Below, one piece after another: positions 1 through 24,984 of a DNA stretch of 64,000 bases. The stretch is from Hydrolagus colliei (lineage: Eukaryota), in contig CM068756.1 of assembly GCA_035084275.1 (NCBI GenBank), positions 5,580,001-5,644,000 of the forward strand, in the 5' to 3' direction. The position numbers and the translations under genes are program-made. The notes under the pieces were generated by a model that was given only the letters and a program-made list of their open reading frames with translations, had not been told where the DNA came from and did not search any database. Every line of letters begins with the position of its first letter. The first letter of the stretch is position 1.

Positions 1-2431
1 GTTACTTCACTGTTAGTAAATAGACAGGAAAAATATACTTAGTGTAAACTTCATTTGCTCTTTTTTGATTTGCAGCAAATCATCTCCTCTGACACTTCCT
101 ATGAATTGTGATGGACAAATTCACACCTTCCTGGTAGGACCTGCTATTTAAAAATCTAGAATATCTTGAAGTAGACAGCCATTCACTTCCTGTTGAGAAT
201 GCTATCCTTCGCCCTCGGCACCTCACTTGTCACTCTATCTTCTGTAGTGGAAAACTATTCCGTTCCTGATAGTAATGCTGTCTGTCCTAAGCCCACAGGC
301 TTCTCAATCATCACTCCAGCTTTCTATTGTGGTGGACAACTACTCTTTTCCTGGTGGGAGTTCTATCCTCTATCCCCAGCCTTATCAGCCATCACTCCAA
401 AGTACTTTTGCATCAGAAAACCAATCACTTCCTGACATGATCGTTAACTCTCAGTCCAGATATGTCAATCATTGATCTAGTTCTTGTTAGCCCTCAGCTA
501 GTGTTGCTTGCAAAAAAAATTATACTTGTAAAGCAGTTGTCATTATAAATCAAATAGAGTAATTGATATGAAAACAGTTCATCTCAAAGTGAATCGTGGA
601 ATGGGATTATTAGTTAAATACATTTTTTTATATGGAACAGAACAGCAATCTAATCTCATCACAGTCATATGATCAGGTTCAAAAAATTTCCCCTTCCCTT
701 TCTCCCCTTCCCACTGAGGAGGTGCCTGCTCCGCTCAATGTCTCCATCTTCCCTCCTCTCCACCCTCTTGAGTTGATGAAGTTGAGATCAAGAGCTGCTG
801 TGCAGGAGAATAAAACTCTTCGGACAACTGCAGTTAAATTCAAAACATTATTCAATGTCACTAATCCTTGGTGTGCAATGATTTAGAAGACAATCAATGC
901 TGACCCTTGGTGATAGATTGGACATCTTAACACTAACATTCCTAGCCTTCATGAGCACAAACATGTACAAAATAAGTAATATGTAATAGAACAACTGTAT
1001 ACATAATCATCGTAATACACACACAGCACGGAAACTAAGGACCAAGCAAGGCTATTTGGCTTATCAAAACAAATACTTCCATAGATTTACATCTAAATAT
1101 AAAATTTGTTGATATGTCATAGCCCATAATGGACACCACTTTACTTACTAAATCTCCTATGCGAAAGTTCCAACGATTAATAATTCCCATCAGCAAAGCT
1201 CTGACTTGCCTGCTGGATATTAATTGCTCCCTATTGGGAGGGGACATCTGAAATCTAGCACGCAAATAAATATACATAAATTAAAATATGCAAAAGAACA
1301 GATGAACTAGTTTGGGTCTCTGAATAATGAGAATGCATTTCATCACGTATTTGGAGAGTACTTTTTTGAAAGTGTGTCACACTCTGGTCAACATAAATGC
1401 TATTTCTGGCAATAAAGGGCTGTAAAGAACTCTACAAGGACGCCTTTGGGCCTGGGAATTTTAATTGCTAATATCACTTCTCTGTTCTGGATCTTCCTTT
1501 GAGACCTTCACTAGCTTAAATGTATCTGGATAGTTAGAGATATCCTCCAGGGCAGTTGTCAACTTAGAAGAATATAGTTATTGGTAAAACCTGTTAAAAC
1601 AATCATTTATTTGATTAAGGTCAACTGTGACAGAATTAGCTGGCAAATTAATTTGACAAATAGCAAGGGACTTTCATCATTATAGACATATGCATCTTAG
1701 CATTTTTACCATCCTATCCCCTCGATGTAAAAAAGGGCCTTTGTGTCCAAGATTCCCTCAACCTTTCTTGAAACTCATTCCAGCTGCTAATGACTCTTTG
1801 TGTAAAGCAATACTTCATGGTATCTGAACTGAAATTGCCCTTCATAATTTAGAACCTAAACCTGAGCTTTGTACCTGAAGTTGAATAATACCTCTAATAC
1901 CACTAATTCTCAGATACAAAATGAAAACTAATTTGGACTGTATTATAAATGGTTTGAACCAGGTGCAGTCTCCATGCTTGGCATTGGTTGGGCAGTCTCT
2001 GCACAGATTTCTGTTAATAGTACTTTGAGAATAAGCAGAGTATGACACATGTAATAGGAATGTCTTCAAGACCAAAGGTTATGGCAGGAAATATTAAACT
2101 GTTTGAAAGGCATTTTGAAGATATTTTGTTGACTTCAGGCCATGTGTTATTGACATATCATGGCATATTATGGCGCGGAAAACTATTTTAAAAAAAAGTA
2201 AAGTATTTTAGGTATCTATTACATTTAAATTATTAGATTTACAATATGTTAAATTACATTTCATACCTAGCATGTAGACATCTTATATATTCATTTTCAT
2301 ATGTTAATCCACATTTTAATATTGCAGATTAATTAATAATAAATCCAGTGAAATTATTAAAATAGCTCTGTAAGTGTTCCTGGCAAGTCTCTGAGTGAGT
2401 GCCTAAATGTATTAAGTGTAGTTTGGCATTG

Positions 2432-2825
2432 CTACAGTAGTACTAGCACCTCTACAGTAGTACTGTACCAGCAGTAGTACTCTGTCTTGCCAGCTTGTAC
2501 TGCTTTACTGCAATTTTGACGTTGCGTCTGTGGTGCCATTGAACCATATGGTGCATGCAGATGTGTCCTTCGTGAAGGCAGGTCTACTTTATGAATACAG
2601 TTTTCCCACATCTGAGGATCAAACACTGATGGTGTTGCAAACAGAGGACTCAACACATCTCTTTCTGCTTGTTGTTGAAATGTCACAAAATGTTGGTCAG
2701 TTGGGTGGTTTGATATATGTGAAAACCCATCACTATGATTAAGAGTATCCAAACCCAACACAGTTTCATGGATGCCACCTATACATTTTGGAAAATAGAT
2801 GCAATTTGCCTCTGAATTTCACTTA
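2432..2825 (-). mobile_element. Highly eroded PIF/Harbinger transposase-like relic (intronic)
   Basis: Minus-strand translations EIQRQIASIF...QHFVTFQQQAERDVLSPLFATPSVF...THLHAP...YYCWYSTTVEVLV loosely follow the recalled Harbinger motif order (YRxIAxLF, FIxFP, IDxTH..AP, KGWYS..LQ). Confidence 0.4.
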
Positions 2826-2859
2826 CCACCATTTGCTTTCTTTGAATCACTCAGTAACT

Positions 2860-2922
2860 AAATAAATTCAATAATAACTCAATAAATAGAAACCAAATAA
2901 ATTCAATAATAACTCAATAAAT
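2860..2922. repeat. Local tandem duplication, 28-bp unit aaataaattcaataataactcaataaat x2 (35-bp period)
   Basis: Two identical copies at 2860-2887 and 2895-2922. Confidence 0.9.
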
Positions 2923-3018
2923 TCAACTTAGCAAGATGAACTTAGAGATGTTTTGAAATAGTTATAAAAAGAGATGAAGTGTACCTTCTATTAAAACAAC
3001 TGTTTATCTTTGTTTGTA

Positions 3019-3331
3019 TAATAATAATAATCCTCATATTTGATATTGTGCTTTTCACGTCTTTTAGATGTCTCAAAGCGCTTCAGGGAATATGCTGTAA
3101 AGTGAATTCACTGTATTTTTGTGGGTGAAACACGGTAGGCAATTGCGCATAGCAGTGTCCCACAAACAGTTGTGGATTGAAATGACCAATTTATTATTGT
3201 GTTTTTCTGGAGGGATTATTATTAGGCCTGTGAAGTAAGAAAACTTGCCCAAGGTTTTGCCCTGCCTGGAATCGAACCCAAGTCTCTCACTTGTAAGGCA
3301 AGCGTTCTAACCACTGACCTGCAGGACTCCA
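3019..3331 (-). mobile_element. Full-length tRNA-derived Deu-type SINE (dominant family)
   Basis: Reverse complement shows A box-like (AGGTCAGTGG) and B box (GGTTCGATTCC), central TGGGACACTGCTATGCGCAATTG, L2-like tail ending (ATT)n; matches other copies in the window. Confidence 0.92.
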
Positions 3332-4071
3332 GATTATCAGTTAACTGGGAAAGAGATTATAGTAATTACAGTGATGACTTTAAAATAACAAAATGTAATA
3401 GATTGCAATAATATAAATGACTGATTTTAGAAAGCTCATGTGTCTCACATTTGCATCACATGCCTGCAGATTACCTGCAATGTTTACTTTGCACAATGCC
3501 TCCAACATCTCTCAGAGATATTTCAATAGTTAAAGATGACGGGGTTGTAGTTTGCAGCATTTCATAACACATTGAATGCTTTATGAAACATAACTAATTT
3601 TCCCCCAATATTTATTGAATGCATCTTAGTTTTATTACTAGTCTATGTATATATCGTACCCTTCGAAATTTTAGGAATACAGTGAGCAGATTAGCCTACA
3701 GTCTCCATCTTGTGGCCACAGAACTGCATTAAATAAAAAATGGTCTACAGTACACAATATGTTTTTGGTATTTGATATATGAATATCAAATATGTAATAT
3801 TAAATGAATTGAAGCTATAATATATTTTAAAAGAGACTTGAAGCTAGGATAATTTTACTGGTGATTTATCTAGCAGTACATATAGGGTATTAGATGTCTG
3901 GCGGTGGAGAAACAAGACACTAATTGAATTAAGAGTATTCTGATGATATAGTAACGCACAAAACCAAAACTACAGTTTTATTTGTCATTAGAACTTGAAG
4001 ATCTAATTATTACTTTGCAGCTTCCACTCACATTTTTGCTTGTTTAAAACAAATTTTCTTGACTTTTTCAG

Positions 4072-4095
4072 AAAGATTTGTCCTCAGTGAAATTG
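4072..4095 (+). CDS. 24-nt coding microexon (phase 1/1) of an unidentified probable membrane-protein gene; encodes (x)RFVLSEI(G)
   Basis: Polypyrimidine acceptor aaattttcttgactttttcag, donor TTG|gtaaat, upstream CTCAC branch-like motif; joins in frame to exon 6281-6326 (G+GA=Gly). Confidence 0.65.
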
Positions 4096-4859
4096 GTAAA
4101 TGTTGGATTATAAAAACAATTGTACTCATTGCGTTGCTTGTGACTCTCACATCTTCAAATAGGTGCAAAGGTGTACATCAATCAGATTTTACTTGCAATT
4201 GTTTTCTTATTTATGCTGAGATCGTGCCAAATAGACTAGCTTACAGTCTGCACAAATAATTTTTAACAATTCAAGTAAAATACAATTAATAAATATATGT
4301 AAACTGGTGAAAGTCATAAACAATGCCATTTACACGACTGCTTTTGCTAAAATGTTTTCCTACAAACAATAATGATACTGAATATAAAATTATATTATAC
4401 TCATACAATTGCATTGGTTATTTTGGAGTGCACAGGCGTAAGTTTGCCTAACTTGCTAAGCTGAGCACAAAGGTAGCAAGGTCATGTCAACAAATCCATT
4501 ATCCAGAGCATACATGATAAAATAACCCCCTGTAGTGATTATAGTACTACTCATATAGATTAACTGCCTTGCTAGTCATCAATTCTCAATGTGTGTGTGA
4601 TTATGCATTAACTATTCAACAATCTTTATGAAAGGATTTGCTAATATATCTTAAATACTGTAGTTGGAGACATACCTGGTCATCCTTGGGTGCTTTTCTA
4701 CGGAAACAAATCAGATTTGGATCTGACAACAATGTCCAGAACACTCCATTTATCATCTTTAAATGCCCAGGCACTACACTTCACAGTGATTCTAGTGAAG
4801 TGCATCTTGACAATGTGCTCTATCAAATTCAAATGCATTAATAATGTCCAACATTTTGA

Positions 4860-4924
4860 ACAACAACGACAAAATTACATTTATAGAGTGCCTTTCATGT
4901 CGGGAGGCTATCCCAAGGTGCTGA
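4860..4924 (-). mobile_element. L2-clade 3' tail stub ending (GTT)n
   Basis: rc CACCTTGGGATAGCCTCCCGACATGAAAGGCACTCTATAAATGTAATTTTGTCGTTGTTG; similar stubs recur >10 times in the window. Confidence 0.75.
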
Positions 4925-5459
4925 ACAATAACTTGAAGCCTTGTGTTCTTGAGTGTTGTCTGTGGGTTTGTGTCTGTGTTGTCCTCTATACACTGATTTA
5001 TTGAGTTGAGTTGAGACATGCAGTTTGTCTCAGGGAGTTTACCCAAACTCCGCTAATACACCATTGGGATTAATGGAGGCCTTGGGGTAGACTAGCTTCC
5101 TGTCCCCTCAATCTGAATGGCATTGAGGAATCCTGGAAAAGAAAGAACTGTATCTTTGTCAAGTTATCCTTGAAAGACTACCTATGTTGAATCACCAAAT
5201 ATGCTTGTAATGTGTTGCCTGTCAAAGAATTATCAGGGAACAACACAGTAAAAAGTGTTATGTTTGGTTTATGTGAAGGAGCGGTTCAGAATGAAGTCAC
5301 AAAACAATTCCCTACAGCACGTTTCATGGCAAAGAGGAACAACCTAAATCCCTCTGCGTTTATGTGAAGCAAGGAACTGTAATGAACCACGAGATATACC
5401 CTCTACCGAGATCTCTGCTTTTATGGCTCCACTAGCTCCACACCCTCAAGATCTGCCAC

Positions 5460-5518
5460 CTGGTTCCCTGTCATCTTCCATCTGCTGTCTGGTTCCCTTT
5501 CATTTTCCATCTGCTGTT
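5460..5518. repeat. Tandem duplication of a ~29-bp unit ctggttccct(g/t)tcat(c/t)ttccatctgctgt
   Basis: Two adjacent near-identical copies. Confidence 0.85.
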
Positions 5519-5709
5519 TCCCTTATCACTGTCCCCAGGCCATCCCCATATTGAATGGATATGGATTGTACCAACTTCTATCTCTGAGAACAGTAGGTCA
5601 CCTCAGTCCTGGGTATTTACATATTAATACAGCCGAGCTTCTAAATAACAGTTTAATAGTAATTGTACTTCCTTAAATCATTTTTATATTTTTTAAAAAT
5701 GAGCTTCTT

Positions 5710-5729
5710 CCCCCCCCCCCCCCCCCCCC
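5710..5729. repeat. Poly-C homopolymer (20 nt)
   Basis: Seen directly. Confidence 0.95.
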
Positions 5730-6280
5730 ACCCTCCACATATCAATTGGGAGAACTTGAATCTGTACTCATCTCCCAAGGAAATAAAAGAAGGAAGCCAA
5801 ACATATGTGCTAACATCACGCTGCCTGGGGCAAGATTCCGTTTTACTGCCCTTCTGCATTTCCACGTTTGAAAATACGGGTAAAAATACATTAGGGTGAC
5901 ATCTTTGTTCAACAGCATTTGTAACTCATTATTCCATTCCTGGTCAATCAGTCCAGAAGTAGTGTTGAAGAGGGTTGAGGCATAGCAATAATTTGTTAAG
6001 TTAGCAGGAGGTATGCTCATTTATGCAAATACCCTATAACATATAAGAACCTCGTAGTGCCCAAGAGAGAAATTCTCTCACTTTTGAGTGTGCAATCTGT
6101 CAACTTTCTCAGCTGCTGAACTAATGCCTCACAGTTCCATTGTGCATATGGGAGCTACAATAAATAGCTCTAGTCATGCGATGAACTCTTACCAGGGCTG
6201 AGAAACTTGTATATCATTAAGCCCAGTATGTTCACAGTTAACAGTTGGTTATCTGAAATAGTTTTGCCTTTATCATTCAG

Positions 6281-6326
6281 GAGATATTTCAGTGTTCTCT
6301 ACTTTATATGTACTCGTATGGATCCG
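6281..6326 (+). CDS. 46-nt internal coding exon; encodes (G)DISVFSTLYVLVWI(R), a hydrophobic putative transmembrane segment
   Basis: Acceptor gttttgcctttatcattcag and consensus donor CCG|gtaagt; open frame is phase-compatible with both neighbours (CG+A=Arg). Confidence 0.8.
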
Positions 6327-6672
6327 GTAAGTATTAGACTGAATTGCCTCGTGTTATAATTGTTTCTAAAAAGAGATAGGTTTCCACATTTTGTGGAAAT
6401 AGAGCTTCAAGATCCTGAACAAGGGTAATCAGCACAAAATATTTACTCTTAGACTGCATCTTACCACTAGTTGCACATCATTATGTATGTCCTTTGTTTA
6501 TCTTTTCAATAATTCTGTTTAAAACAGTGATGGATCATTACATTATTGGGGAAAATGTGATTAGGAGCTTGAGAGTATAAATAAGATGAACAACATCTGG
6601 CTATTTATGTAATTTCAGCTATATACTGTATTAACTCACCTTGTTTTAGTAATTTGTCAGTTTTTCTCATAG

Positions 6673-6844
6673 ACTTTTTCCACTTGGGACTGCGCTGAGG
6701 AGGCCAAAATTCACTGAACCCTTACAACCAGCAGAAAATGAAGACATTCATCCCATCAGTCAGTGTAACTCGGATTGCACAGGTGAAAGTCCCGCAAACA
6801 TAAAATTGAGAACAGAAAAAACAATTGGACAAACCGCTGAATAA
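6673..6844 (+). CDS. Terminal coding exon; (R)LFPLGTALRRPKFTEPLQPAENEDIHPISQCNSDCTGESPANIKLRTEKTIGQTAE*
   Basis: Acceptor tttttctcatag; 57 codons open to TAA (6842-6844) in exactly the frame dictated by the previous exon; the other two frames hit stops early; polyA hexamers follow. Confidence 0.78.
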
Positions 6845-7144
6845 ACTTGGATAGATTTCTATTATTCTCACAGCAGAGCAAATATGGAATATTAAAGTCA
6901 TGATGAAGCCATTTGTGTCTGAAAGCAGATGTGGAATAGACTAGTTTAGCGTTTACAGGAGCAGAATTTCTAAAATGTATACAATACAGAAATATCATAA
7001 AAATTCATTCCTACTAATGTTGATTTAGACAGTACTTAGTTGACTTAATCATGGAAAATCAGAGCATCAAAAGTTATATTTTAAGAGCAGTGGATAAATT
7101 ATGATTTTAAAAGTTCTAATGAACTTTTTTGAACTGTCCCTTGT

Positions 7145-7150
7145 AATAAA
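7145..7150 (+). terminator. Candidate polyadenylation signal AATAAA for the upstream gene (alternatives 6840-6845, ATTAAA 6891-6896, AATAAA 7372-7377)
   Basis: Canonical hexamer ~300 nt downstream of the stop; hexamers are common in AT-rich DNA, so the used site is uncertain. Confidence 0.35.
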
Positions 7151-7578
7151 CATGCTGCTATTTATATACCTATACTCACTGGATTTACCAGCTTGGATGC
7201 TGTAAATAGTGAGTATACTGCGGTAGCACATTATTGCCTGAGTTAATGATATTTCTTTAGCTATTAGATCAGTGAATTAATGACACTCACGATACCTGAA
7301 AAGTTTCCTGGATACTACTGCCATAAACATACTCTTGAACAGGTGGCATGGGACTGAAAGATTGAGTTTTGAATAAAGGCATTATGGTCCCACTTAACCA
7401 AGGTGAGTAAAATGATTATTTAAAAGATTCTTCTTGGAGGTTTATTTAAGGAGTGTGTTCTGGGTTTGACTATTTCTGAGGAAATACGTGTGGCAAAGCC
7501 AGGCAGGTCCGCAGTAATTCATGTGTTATATGGAAAGCTTTAGACTTCGTCAACTCTACAGCCTAAAGTCTAAAGAAG

Positions 7579-7897
7579 AATAATAATAATAATCTTGGCA
7601 TTTGATATAGCTCCTTGCATCCTGGCATTTGATACGTTTCTTAGACATCTCAAAGAGCTTCACAGAATATACTGTAAAGTGAATTGAATATGTGGGCAAA
7701 ATGTGGCAGCCAACTGTGCACAGCAGTGTCCCACAAACAGTCGCAGATTGAAATGACCAATTTATTATTGCTTTTTTGATGGATTATTATTGGGCGTGTG
7801 GAGTAAGGAAACTTGCATGGTTCCGCCCTGCCTAGAATTGAACCCATGTCTCCTGCTTGTAAGGCAAGTGCTCTAACCACTGAGCTAGGACTCCACA
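7579..7897 (-). mobile_element. Full-length tRNA-derived Deu-type SINE with a small duplication in the tail
   Basis: rc GTGGAGTCCTAGCTCAGTGGTTAGAGCACTTGCCTTACAAGC...GGTTCAATTCT; Deu-type core; (ATT)n tail. Confidence 0.92.
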
Positions 7898-8136
7898 GAG
7901 AAATGAATTCACAAAGAAGTTAGATCGTTACAGAGGAGGACCTTGCTGCGTGGTAACCAATAATCCCACCAAAACCTACTGACTCTGCAGACATCCTTAG
8001 CTTCTAACTCTAACTCACCATTTTACTGTGAACCAGGTAAAAAGGAAAAGAAAAACTGCTATTAAATGGCAGTGGCTGTCAATACCACACTCAAAATGGC
8101 AGTAACCATCTAGCTAACCCACAGGATGGCAGAGAG

Positions 8137-8197
8137 CAACAACAGCAGCTTGCATTTATATAGCCCTTCATGCGGGGTAGAGTCGCGGAGAGCTTGA
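8137..8197 (-). mobile_element. L2-clade/SINE 3' tail stub
   Basis: caacaacagcagcttgcatttatatagcccttcatg, similar to stubs at 27018 and 37066. Confidence 0.65.
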
Positions 8198-8274
8198 ATG
8201 GCACTCGGTACCTCTGAGTGCCATTACAAACTTGCGTTCCAATGATGTGACCACTGATACCCTGCCACACGCTG

Positions 8275-8289
8275 GTTGCTCATGGTAAC
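8275..8289. promoter_or_regulatory. RFX X-box-like motif GTTGCTCATGGTAAC in a locally GC/CpG-richer patch
   Basis: One mismatch to GTNRCC-N(0-3)-RGYAAC; motif only, no functional evidence. Confidence 0.35.
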
Positions 8290-9240
8290 ACCGCTTGCCT
8301 CAATGTATTTGCCACTGGGACGCACTGCACAGCTTCCAACACACAGCAATTGGCAACAATCTTCTATTTTCCAGGTGCCTGCTGCTGCTGCTCTGTGGGC
8401 TGGGCGTGAAGCCCTGACTGCCTCGAGATTGGGATGCTGAGGGGAGTAGAACAAAAATAGAAAAAAGCACCCGAATGAAGGGCGAAAGAGGCAAGGAAGG
8501 AAGAAAACTGGTGGAAAAAGAGCCGTACAAGTGGAGATGAAGGATCAGTTAGGAAGATCTGAGCACAGGGAAAGTCAAAGAAATAGTAAGTAACAATAGA
8601 AATGTTGATTTGTCTCTTAATTCTTCTCCTAGTTTTTTTTAATAATGTGAAATTCTCTCTTATTAACGACAAGAATACTGATGGTGCAATTCCAACTTGT
8701 TGTGCTAAGGCTGTAGGAGTAGATTAACAGCTGCACTGTCTCTGAGTGAGTCCCTGGAGCAGAGAAGAGACAGCGAATGTCCTTTACATCCACTTGTACC
8801 GGGACTAATTTACAATGTGGCAAAGCATGACTATTAATCTATCCTTACAACTACAGGGAAAAAATATTGGAACAACGTCATCTGTTTAATCTTTCTATGT
8901 GTATATTAGAAGATACAAATCAGTTGGTTGCACAAGCATATACGTCCCAGTCACGTTTCCTCCAGATTTTACGTCTAAAATAGTTGATCGGTATAACTTT
9001 AGTCATTAAAAGATGATATAGATATAAACTATCAATGGAGAGTATTTCAGTATTTTAAAACCCACGATCAGCATCACCAACCCACTGCTTCTTGTCCTCA
9101 TTTTCTCTCCTATTATTTTTGACGATGCTGCCATTCCTCACTTTGGCCTTCAACCCTTACCCTAGTTTCTCAACCTAAATAAACGGGTTCCCTTTTACAG
9201 AGAAGGGAGTTTCTCCCCGCCAACAATCCTCCAGATAAAC

Positions 9241-21491: not shown

Positions 21492-22034
21492 CCTTGCAAA
21501 AACAAAATAAAAGTGGATTTTAACTACATTTTCAGGTAATAACAATAAAACATTTCAAAGTAAGAGTGTAAGTCAGAAGCCAAGCCGATATTGTTGTCAT
21601 GGAGTGTCCTTTATAAGTGTGTCATATCAAAAAATACTATGTATTTTGTATTACTGTACTATCTATATTTCCTTTCTGTTAGGTTTATTTGTTTAGAAAC
21701 AATGGTGGGTTTATTTGATAGAATGAGCATCTGTCTGTTGCACATGACTGATCTTGGGTAATATTTTGAAAAATATTCAGTACCTTCAGTCCATCCATTC
21801 TGAACAGATACGCGTCAGCTTTTTTGTGTTTATGTGTTGTACAAAGGTTTGCACTATGTTGTTTCTGCACACAGAAAATGATCAGAAATGTGCTACAATG
21901 TTGGAACAATGGAATTTCTTTTGAGGTCAGAATGACAGAAAATTAAGGTTCTAATCGTTAAAACTCACAGGAAGTTGGAGTATGCCATATTCCTACCAAA
22001 GTGATACATCACTTGACTCGCACAAGTGAATGGC

Positions 22035-22905
22035 TCACTGTACTTTTCAACATCTATATGCTCCCCTTGGTGACATCATCCTCAGACATGGGGTCAGCTT
22101 GCTGTCATTCTGCCTCCAACCTCGATTCCAGGACCACAGCTGTCCTGATAGACGGCCTGTCGGGCAGAAAGTCCTGGATGAGAGCTAACTTTCTACAGTT
22201 GAATATCAACAAGACCAAGGCCCTCCTGATTAGCTTGCACCAGCACTTCTACACCTCAGGCACTGCCAGCATCAACCTCCATGGTTGCACACTCCACCTC
22301 ACCAAGCCAGTCAGGAACCTAGGTGTCTTGTTCGATCCTCAACTGTCTTTTCTGCCCAACATCAATGCCATGACTCGCTCTGCCTTCCCTCACCTCCGCA
22401 ACATTGCCCGAATTGCCACTACCTCAACCCCTCAGGTCGTTGAAACTCTCATTCATGCCTTCATCACATCCAGGCTCGACTATGCCAATGCCCTGCTTGT
22501 CAGCCTCCTCAACTTCTCCCTCCATAGCCTGCAGATCATCCAGATCCCCTTAGCTCATGTTCTCTCCCACACCAAGCTCCATGACTCTATTACCCCATTC
22601 TCGCCCGACTCCACTGGCTTCCCATTACCCAGAGGATTAAATTCAAGATACTGGTCCTCACCTTTAAAGCCCTTCATGGCTTTGTCCCACCCTACTTCTG
22701 TGATCTCCTAACCCCCTACCAACCTGTCCGTTCCCTCTGCTCAGCGTATCCGGCCTGCTCTATGTCCCCCAACCCATCTGCCCCAGCAGCAGCGAGTGAG
22801 CCTTCAGCCACTCTGCCCCAACCTCTGGAATTCCATCCCGCAATCCCTCCCTAGCCTCCTTCCAGTCCCACCTTAAGACCCTCTCCTTTGACTGTGCCAT
22901 TGGCA
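22035..22905 (+). mobile_element. 5'-truncated L2-clade LINE; degenerate reverse-transcriptase C-terminal region (ORF-track 22001-22711)
   Basis: Motifs LFNIYMLPL, WMRANFLQLNINKT, VRNLGVLFD, HLRNIARI, ETLIHAFITSRLDYANALL; the YADD segment is deleted and the 3' part is frameshifted, so it is inactive. Confidence 0.93.
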
Positions 22906-23080
22906 CCCCCATTCTCCTCCCTTCCCACCATCCTCCCCGATCCCCACCCCAGAAGTTATTGGTGCAAAGTATTTTTCACATTGTTATTTACGTTTAATAG
23001 AGTACTGTATAGGTAGCGTCTTTACTCAATAATTAAGTGTATCTGTAATTCTCTCTGGCTACATGGTTTACCCATTGCAC

Positions 23081-23389
23081 ATAATAATAATCCTTGCATT
23101 TGATATAGTGCTTTTAGCCCTCTAGATGTCTCAAAGTGCTTCACAGAATATACTGTAAAGTGAAATGACCATATATTTGTGGGAGAAGCATGGCAGTCAA
23201 TTGCACACAGCAATGTCCCACAAATAATCGTGGATACAAATGAACAATTTATTTTAAAAATTCTTGAAGGATGATTATCAGGCATGTGGAGTAAGGAAAC
23301 TTGCCCAAAGTTTTGCCCTGTTGAGAATTGAACCCAGGTCTCTTGCTTGCAAGGTGAATACTCTAACCACTGAGCTACAGGACTCCACA
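23081..23389 (-). mobile_element. Full-length tRNA-derived Deu-type SINE
   Basis: rc GTGGAGTCCTGTAGCTCAGTGGTTAGAG...GGTTCAATTCT; core; (ATT)n tail; CACATAAT occurs at both junctions. Confidence 0.93.
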
Positions 23390-24984
23390 TAATATAGCTG
23401 TGCTTACACCTGTGCTTAAATTACAGATACCATTACTTTTTCTTATATAATAGTAATTTTTTCAGCCAATTTCATGAGATTCGAAGTGCTGACAACTTAC
23501 CGTGCACCTTACCTAGTCAATGATCTTTGAACTGTGCAGAATATAAGATGAATTCTGTTTTGTGTGAACTTGTCAGTTGTTTGGCACTCTTATCTTATAG
23601 GGGAATAGACTGAGATAAATTACTCCAAATGTATTGAGGTTATATTACAATTTTAAGAAATATATGAAAACACTTGGAACATACTGGAATTAGCCAAATC
23701 TTATTAGCATTTATTGGAACTCATCTCACTTTCACACTTATTAGAAGCACTTGCTATTCAAACAGCTGCTTTTTCCTGAAAGTCCACTAGGGATTCATAA
23801 CATGTGAAGACTGCAAATGCTATCAGTATCAGTAATAACAGATTACTTTTTTTACTTTGAGTGTAAACCGTCCTCGTTGCCATCACCCCCCCTACCTCCA
23901 CCCCTCATTCTTTTGCACTCGTCACACTACCTCACAGGTCCAAGGGTGTCTGAAAGGGGGAAATGTGAAAATAAAGAGTTCTCAGATCTCTGCTAACACA
24001 ACTTTGAAGTGACCCCAAGGGGTACCTGAGAACAGATTGGATCTATTACTATATTGGTGGAATCTCACTTGGTGAGCTGTTCAGGGGAGCTGGACTTGTG
24101 AATTACCTGAGTTGTGTTGTGGCATTATAGTAATGTAGGGTAACAAAGTTCACACTTCAGGGAGAGGAGTTAACAAAATACGACGACTCTATTGCCAGTA
24201 GAACCTCCAATAGGTGGCTGGGTGACAACCTCACTAGTTATTAACAGATGTTAAGGGAATGTGATTGTTTGAAGTCTGAGACATAGTTTCAAGCCAGAAG
24301 ATATTTTACTGATACCAGATTCATTTGAGGTGTGTCTTGTTACAAGTATGGTCTGCCTACCAGGAACTTAAGCTGTAGCTGTAACTTTGCACGAAACAGA
24401 ACTATTTATTTGATTGATTTGATGTTCCGTTCTAGATGGAATGGAGTCTGCTGTAACAGGACTAATTGCATGGTGGTCATATATGATTGGGGCATGTCAT
24501 TCTGCTTGGCTGGAATGATTCCCATCTTTTCTGCGTCTTAATAAACTGCTTCAGCTTTAACCAACTGTGTCTAACAGCTTATCGAAACTTGGAAACAAAG
24601 AGGAACTTAAAGGCTGGCCCACAAAAGTTAGGATGAGAATCTCCATTACAAATATCTTTATGAGATCAAAAGTTTAATGCAGTGGGTCCTAGTAGTTATT
24701 CTATTGCTAACTGCAACCTTGTTAACTCTAGCAGTGGCTATGTAATCTATTTGAGTTTCAAGGCAACCGCATATGTTTGACCACAAGTCAGCTTTGCAAT
24801 GTTTACAATATGATAAAGATCTTTTAGCTAACAACCAACAGTTAAAACAGATTGCTTTGTTCCTGGGTAAACCAGACAAGCAGTTATTTTGTGTGTATGC
24901 ACAGTCAAATTGAGACCTGGCTTCTAAATGAGATAAGAATTGAGGGAGGAACTATTAGCTCAAGAACAAAACTCTATTTAGAGT

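Follow-up and report, generated by a model that had tools for sequence, protein, structure and literature searches.

The segments described here come from the spotted ratfish Hydrolagus colliei. They are oriented head-to-head with ZNF507, 8–11 kb away from its CpG-island promoter, at the edge of the desert that separates this gene from TSHZ3. The window that was analysed is a stretch of 64,000 nucleotides (C23:5580001-5644000) of the 1.0-Gb genome, and negative coordinates are counted back from its first base. Upstream of the window lie a long, classical cadherin gene, which we take to resemble the non-mammalian "neural-cadherin-like" type, a DPY19 gene, presumably of the L3 subtype, and ZNF507 itself, whose first exon is fitted by a minus-strand donor at -4312 (Table 1). 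Beyond TSHZ3 stands a gene that we assume to be ZNF536-like. The large exon of TSHZ3 was found at +374 kb (PDB 2dmi, E 6e-64), and no host genes were recognised downstream between the candidate and TSHZ3. CCNE1-TSHZ3-ZNF507-ZNF536 is a conserved vertebrate regulatory block with 96 ultraconserved elements (PMC3436827); of the genes annotated in pig, TSHZ3 and ZNF507 lay closest to the interval (PMC4210560). Positions 8000-64000 of the window, which are part of the ZNF507–TSHZ3 desert, likely hold conserved non-coding enhancers. The ZNF507 promoter bounds the locus on the other side, and a candidate gene here can therefore span at most ~11.5 kb.

Some further elements of this neighbourhood deserve a brief description. 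Between DPY19 and ZNF507, on the plus strand, a 148-codon open frame (-39299..-38856) contains repeated ETESRR-like units and has no Pfam match; it may be one exon of a further gene that lacks annotation. Interspersed repeats of very high copy number occupy 3005-3343, 4851-4934, 7571-7902 and 23022-23420, some of them SINE-like with a tRNA-like head, and a search of Rfam returned four tRNA matches and nothing else, those at 3257 and 7832 falling within interspersed repeats. A 249-codon ORF at 21962-22711, with no Pfam match and with similar copies across the desert, resembles, as we take it, the 3' portion of a reverse transcriptase from an L2-type LINE.

Table 1. Features of the candidate locus and its surroundings. 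Splice scores are given as acceptor/donor where both apply.
Feature	Position	Strand	Remarks
Cadherin gene, long, classical	about -115000..-81700	+	laminin-G/EGF-like exons; next to DPY19, upstream of window
DPY19 gene	upstream of window	-	Dpy19 profile matches
ZNF507	upstream of window	-	Atlas 0.98 to chordate ZNF507 clusters
CpG island, ZNF507 promoter	-4500..-4050 (C23:5575500-5575950)		GCGCATGCGC, TCTCGCGA, five plus-oriented GC boxes
Predicted first coding exon	-4183..-4145	+	strong Kozak ATG
94-codon open frame	-2900..-2619	+	strong-Kozak ATG at -2762, acceptor at -2775
Predicted micro-exon, 25 nt	-1076..-1052	+	mildly positive coding score
Exon candidate	76..133	+	strong acceptor, 7.3/3.6; out of frame with best model; could be an alternative exon, part of a UTR or a pseudo-exon
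Degenerate direct-repeat array, single-copy	105..435	+	about 5 units of 60-85 nt, inside candidate locus
Micro-exon, 24 nt	4072..4095	+	TTTTTCAG at acceptor (7.5); donor TTG|GTAAAT (0.45)
Middle exon, 46 nt	6281..6326	+	TCATTCAG at acceptor; donor CCG|GTAAGT; 6.9/7.2, strongest splice pair
Terminal coding segment, 172 nt	6673..6844	+	CTCATAG acceptor, 3.6; 56 codons + TAA; basic patch RRPK, polar tail
Predicted 3' UTR	6845..7170	+	AATAAA at 7145

The initial annotation had taken three AG/GT-bounded segments for the 3' end of a spliced membrane-protein gene. The segments are present at 4072..6844, and their joined frame (phases 1, 1 and 2) runs for 79 codons to a TAA at 6842-6844 and gives the 79-residue peptide that was claimed. 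Two frames are open in the first exon and three in the middle one, whose product in the frame of that annotation is the hydrophobic core DISVFSTLYVLVWI; its other two frames stop 8–14 codons into the last exon. AATAAA occurs at 6840, 7145 and 7372, the copy at 7145 lying ~300 nt past the stop. Splice sites were scored with approximate matrices built from textbook frequencies, without fitting. On this scale, the best sites beside nine Dpy19 profile matches of the neighbouring DPY19 gene reach 0.1–5.6 for acceptors and 1.2–7.5 for donors in eight of the nine, the ninth match (the last exon) falling below 0; the first donor of the candidate, at 4095, is weak. Other boundaries were tried and rejected: alternative acceptors for the last exon at 6650 and 6661 both score below 0; an exon candidate at 5539-5596 was dropped for its donor (-1.7) and poor coding score; and a gene running on beyond a donor at 6783 was set aside, as no host-like ORF was recognised in the desert downstream, where tiny exons could escape.

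Earlier exons, which the initial annotation had envisaged upstream, may be supplied by two candidates that fit the frame, those predicted at -4183..-4145 and -1076..-1052. When every combination of seven upstream candidate exons was scored, the best complete model joined these two to the core (-4183..-4145, -1076..-1052, 4072-4095, 6281-6326, 6673-6844), giving five exons and 101 codons with compatible phases at all four junctions; no model outscored it at Markov order 3 and one did at order 2, and the top 15 models per order encode 69–126 aa. Two ATTAAA hexamers within 200 nt past the predicted first donor count against it. An alternative model of 98 codons starts at -2762. The open frame around that start has a non-coding-like score, and a homologue search with it gave 22 candidates, none at E≤0.01, and no match among 1.84 billion representatives. 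In the stretch from the island to 6281, the plus strand has 3, 4 or 5 open exons with strong acceptors at three cut-offs (4072 counted in) and the minus strand has none, against expectations of 0.8, 1.2 and 2.3 (P 0.05, 0.03 and 0.08). The initial annotation is partly supported overall. Its reading of the structure as the 3' end of a spliced gene is plausible from the strong middle exon, the coding-like last exon, the AATAAA sites and a CpG promoter that lies where such a gene would need it. The three segments probably form a genuine spliced unit, whose coding status is uncertain.

How far the unit resembles coding sequence was measured with a periodic Markov model whose training set was 15.3 kb of coding exons from the neighbourhood. 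By this model the last exon comes close to real exons, both against stop-free control stretches (p 0.067, 0.016 and 0.030 at orders 2, 3 and 4) and, again coding-like, against GC-matched controls (p 0.031, 0.004 and 0.031). For the 79 codons taken together, the coding signal falls short of significance at orders 2 and 4 (GC-matched p 0.19, 0.03 and 0.19 at orders 2, 3 and 4). The middle exon, in the frame of the initial annotation, falls in the bottom 1–4%; that frame is the least coding-like among the three open ones and scores lower than every one of 129 overlapping 42-nt windows taken from DPY19 exons, 12 hydrophobic ones included. Any open frame across the 237-nt stretch is expected 4.3% of the time, and the exonic excess of CpG (6 versus 3.0) is not significant (11%). 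Over window positions 1-9000, a genome-wide DNA run departs from the assembly by 11 base differences and 3 indels; for the upstream candidate exons, before the window, no difference was listed. Among the rows listed, the contigs of this run have no exon-exon joints, which does not bear on expression. One of the indels is an extra A behind 6815, in an A-run of the coding tail, which exchanges the last 7 residues for 6 others and may be an allele or an assembly error.

Searches for relatives used single exons or single ORFs as queries, the 14-residue hydrophobic exon being run against Pfam and its own genome only. With the last exon, proteins of 99–2000 aa gave 17 candidates, none at E≤1, proteins of 34–111 aa gave no candidates, and the PDB gave no matches; the best value in the Atlas, which contains chordate ZNF507 clusters, was 0.81, a lead only and not a homologue; and in metagenome contigs none of 562 pattern matches was confirmed. 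Pfam returned nothing above cut-off for the candidate exons and window ORFs (sets of 11 and 10 proteins and four exon pieces), no paralogues were found in the same genome with single-exon queries, and no description of a gene head-to-head with ZNF507 was found in the literature that was searched. No well-conserved copy of the last exon was thus retrievable from the collections searched, and a fast-evolving family would remain compatible with these results. The results agree with the earlier suggestion that the gene may be uncharacterised or lost in well-studied lineages, but single-exon queries stop short of proving it.

It is less easy to uphold the view, also part of the initial annotation, that the hydrophobic stretch is the last helix of a larger membrane protein. 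The 79 residues do contain one hydrophobic stretch, but it is marginal: its core of 13 residues ends in Arg and Pro, 19.7% of 599 random open frames reach its highest Kyte-Doolittle mean over 19 residues (1.65), and the insertion estimate is about +2 kcal/mol (a rough dG). No second transmembrane helix was seen by inspection in the upstream exons of the best models, and none occurs elsewhere in the 79 residues. Given the cap set by the ZNF507 promoter and a best model of 101 codons, there is therefore no room for a multi-pass protein, and with top models this short and a single hydrophobic stretch the claim of a last helix is not supported. The stretch should rather read as the only, marginal helix of a candidate microprotein. 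Under the positive-inside rule, a basic flank marks the cytosolic side of a helix, and the 101-codon model has such a bias, with five acidic residues and one basic before the core and four basic ones within the 13 residues after it.

Our leading, still tentative, reading is that the segments may be the final three exons of a small gene encoding a ~100-residue protein, whose single hydrophobic stretch would serve as a membrane anchor. Observed at the locus are the exon boundaries, the joined open frame, the position and orientation opposite ZNF507, the poly(A) signals and the flanking gene desert. For coding speak a middle exon that outranks all control open exons, the coding-like last exon and the full ATG-to-stop model; against it speak the worst frame in the middle exon, the marginal helix, the blank homology searches, the tail indel and the misfit of exon 76-133. 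The rest, namely transcription, the two upstream exons and translation, we infer. Divergent transcription from the CpG island common to ZNF507 would produce a five-exon mRNA, translated into a signal-anchored microprotein of ~100 aa with no cleavable signal. Its N terminus would lie outside and its polar C-terminal tail in the cytosol, because acidic residues precede and basic residues follow the core. Within a membrane complex the protein might play an accessory or regulatory part, the usual role of single-pass microproteins. SMIM-, FXYD- and PDZK1IP1/SMIM24-type microproteins resemble the predicted protein in having ~100 aa, short exons, one hydrophobic stretch with acidic residues before and basic ones after it, and a polar tail. 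Unlike them, the candidate is without a sequence or Pfam match, and its 13-residue core ends in Arg and Pro. The FXYD motif is absent from all candidate exon translations, and with no Pfam match either, the candidate falls outside the FXYD family.

Other explanations have to be weighed against a small coding gene. First, the locus may produce a spliced, polyadenylated lncRNA that diverges from the ZNF507 promoter, in which the 79-codon frame is incidental and any function would be exerted in cis, on ZNF507 or on the regulatory block of TSHZ3. We consider this possible; a non-coding RNA explains the locus almost as well as a small coding gene does. In its favour is the head-to-head arrangement with a transcription-factor gene at that gene's CpG island, as a matter of position only, and such an RNA would account for the strong splice sites, the misfit of exon 76-133, the tail indel, the low coding score of exon 6281 and the absent homologues. 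It fits less well with an open frame over three exons, for which chance gives just ~4%, with a last exon that is still coding-like after GC matching, and with a complete ATG-to-stop model that satisfies all junctions. The mouse lncRNA E130304I02Rik may lie head-to-head with Zfp507. This pairing is unconfirmed in the literature, with no match in the supplementary files searched of PMC3882496 or in the supplements of PMC10294071, PMC7671357 and PMC7181654. E130304I02Rik is termed a lncRNA (PMC10294071) and appears in co-expression modules of a study of hybrid subfertility (PMC7253214).

Two further known systems resemble the candidate. Long upstream antisense transcripts are enriched at the promoters of transcription regulators in mouse (PMC3882496), and the candidate resembles the divergent lncRNAs at transcription-factor promoters in facing a zinc-finger gene head-to-head across a CpG island; it differs from them in its spliced ORF of 79–101 codons and coding-like last exon, and its transcription is a prediction. 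Genes with lost coding potential that have lncRNAs as their positional counterparts in mammals are described in PMC5577775; the supplements of that paper, which may list genes by identifier only, gave no matches to locus names. The likeness here is a candidate coding gene in a non-mammal, at a place for which TSHZ3 and ZNF507 are the closest genes in the pig annotation (PMC4210560); the difference is that no orthologue of the candidate is shown in any species. The stronger proposal that an ancient, unannotated vertebrate microprotein gene on the ZNF507 bidirectional promoter was kept in the lineage of this fish, and in mammals either disappeared or became a divergent lncRNA, is one to which we give little credence.

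Second, a 56-codon open frame and cryptic sequences that look like splice sites could have come together by chance in AT-rich DNA that is never so spliced, which we regard as unlikely. The control was 944 kb of nearby non-genic sequence on both strands, with cut-offs chosen after the finding had been seen, and such post hoc thresholds weaken the case against chance. No open exon in this control matches 6281-6326 in strength. Exons with splice scores of at least 5/5 number 16, of which three lead to an in-frame terminal ORF of at least 56 codons within 3 kb. At relaxed cut-offs, 0.037 chains of exon plus terminal ORF are expected per 11.8-kb strand, or ~0.4 per 64-kb window (both strands), and at looser ones 0.49 and 1.9 per strand; these rates, the weak first donor (0.45) and the blank homologue searches all leave some room for coincidence. 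Against coincidence stand the lack of exons as strong in the control, the location of the chain no more than 11 kb from a CpG-island promoter, on the strand that points outward and with a poly(A) signal, and the restriction of additional exon candidates to the plus strand. The exon finder is a blunt tool: it separated the strands in the cadherin gene (25 versus 5) and showed no strand bias in DPY19/ZNF507 at the looser cut-off (24 versus 23; 3 versus 1 at the stricter), and strong acceptors taken alone have little strand bias. The core exceeds typical chance yet is not beyond it, and its genomic position lifts the structure above chance.

Finally, the repeat array at 105-435 raises the question of decay. 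The last four of its units are spaced 76, 85 and 81 nt apart, with identities of 65–74%, and the units share a CTTCCTG-like core that creates donor-like sites at 134 and 354; their lengths are mostly not multiples of three, and all four aligned units lack stops in one frame. The array looked like a frameshifted coding repeat, but a coding origin was rejected because its coding score is not significant (p 0.74 and 0.85). That the whole locus is a decayed remnant, a unitary pseudogene whose last exon retains codon bias while the upstream exons and the array have lost frame, is improbable: it draws on the spacing that makes the shared motif jump frame, on the one frame that stays open, on frame breaks that look real, since the DNA-run contig lists no indel within the array, and on the uneven coding signal among exons, but it is opposed by the array's lack of a significant coding signature, by the failure of the single-exon and single-ORF searches to find a parent gene or paralogue, and by splice sites that are still strong.

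A small protein-coding gene, tentative as that assignment is, remains the reading we prefer. Small genes often go unannotated in vertebrates that have been little studied, and because of this its presence would be only a modest surprise. If the unit is non-coding, it would be an ordinary divergent transcript. If it is coding, it would be a microprotein gene without a family, bordering the CCNE1-TSHZ3-ZNF507-ZNF536 block, which ranks among the most conserved regulatory blocks of vertebrates, and would offer a direct test case for the conversion of proteins to lncRNAs at bidirectional promoters.
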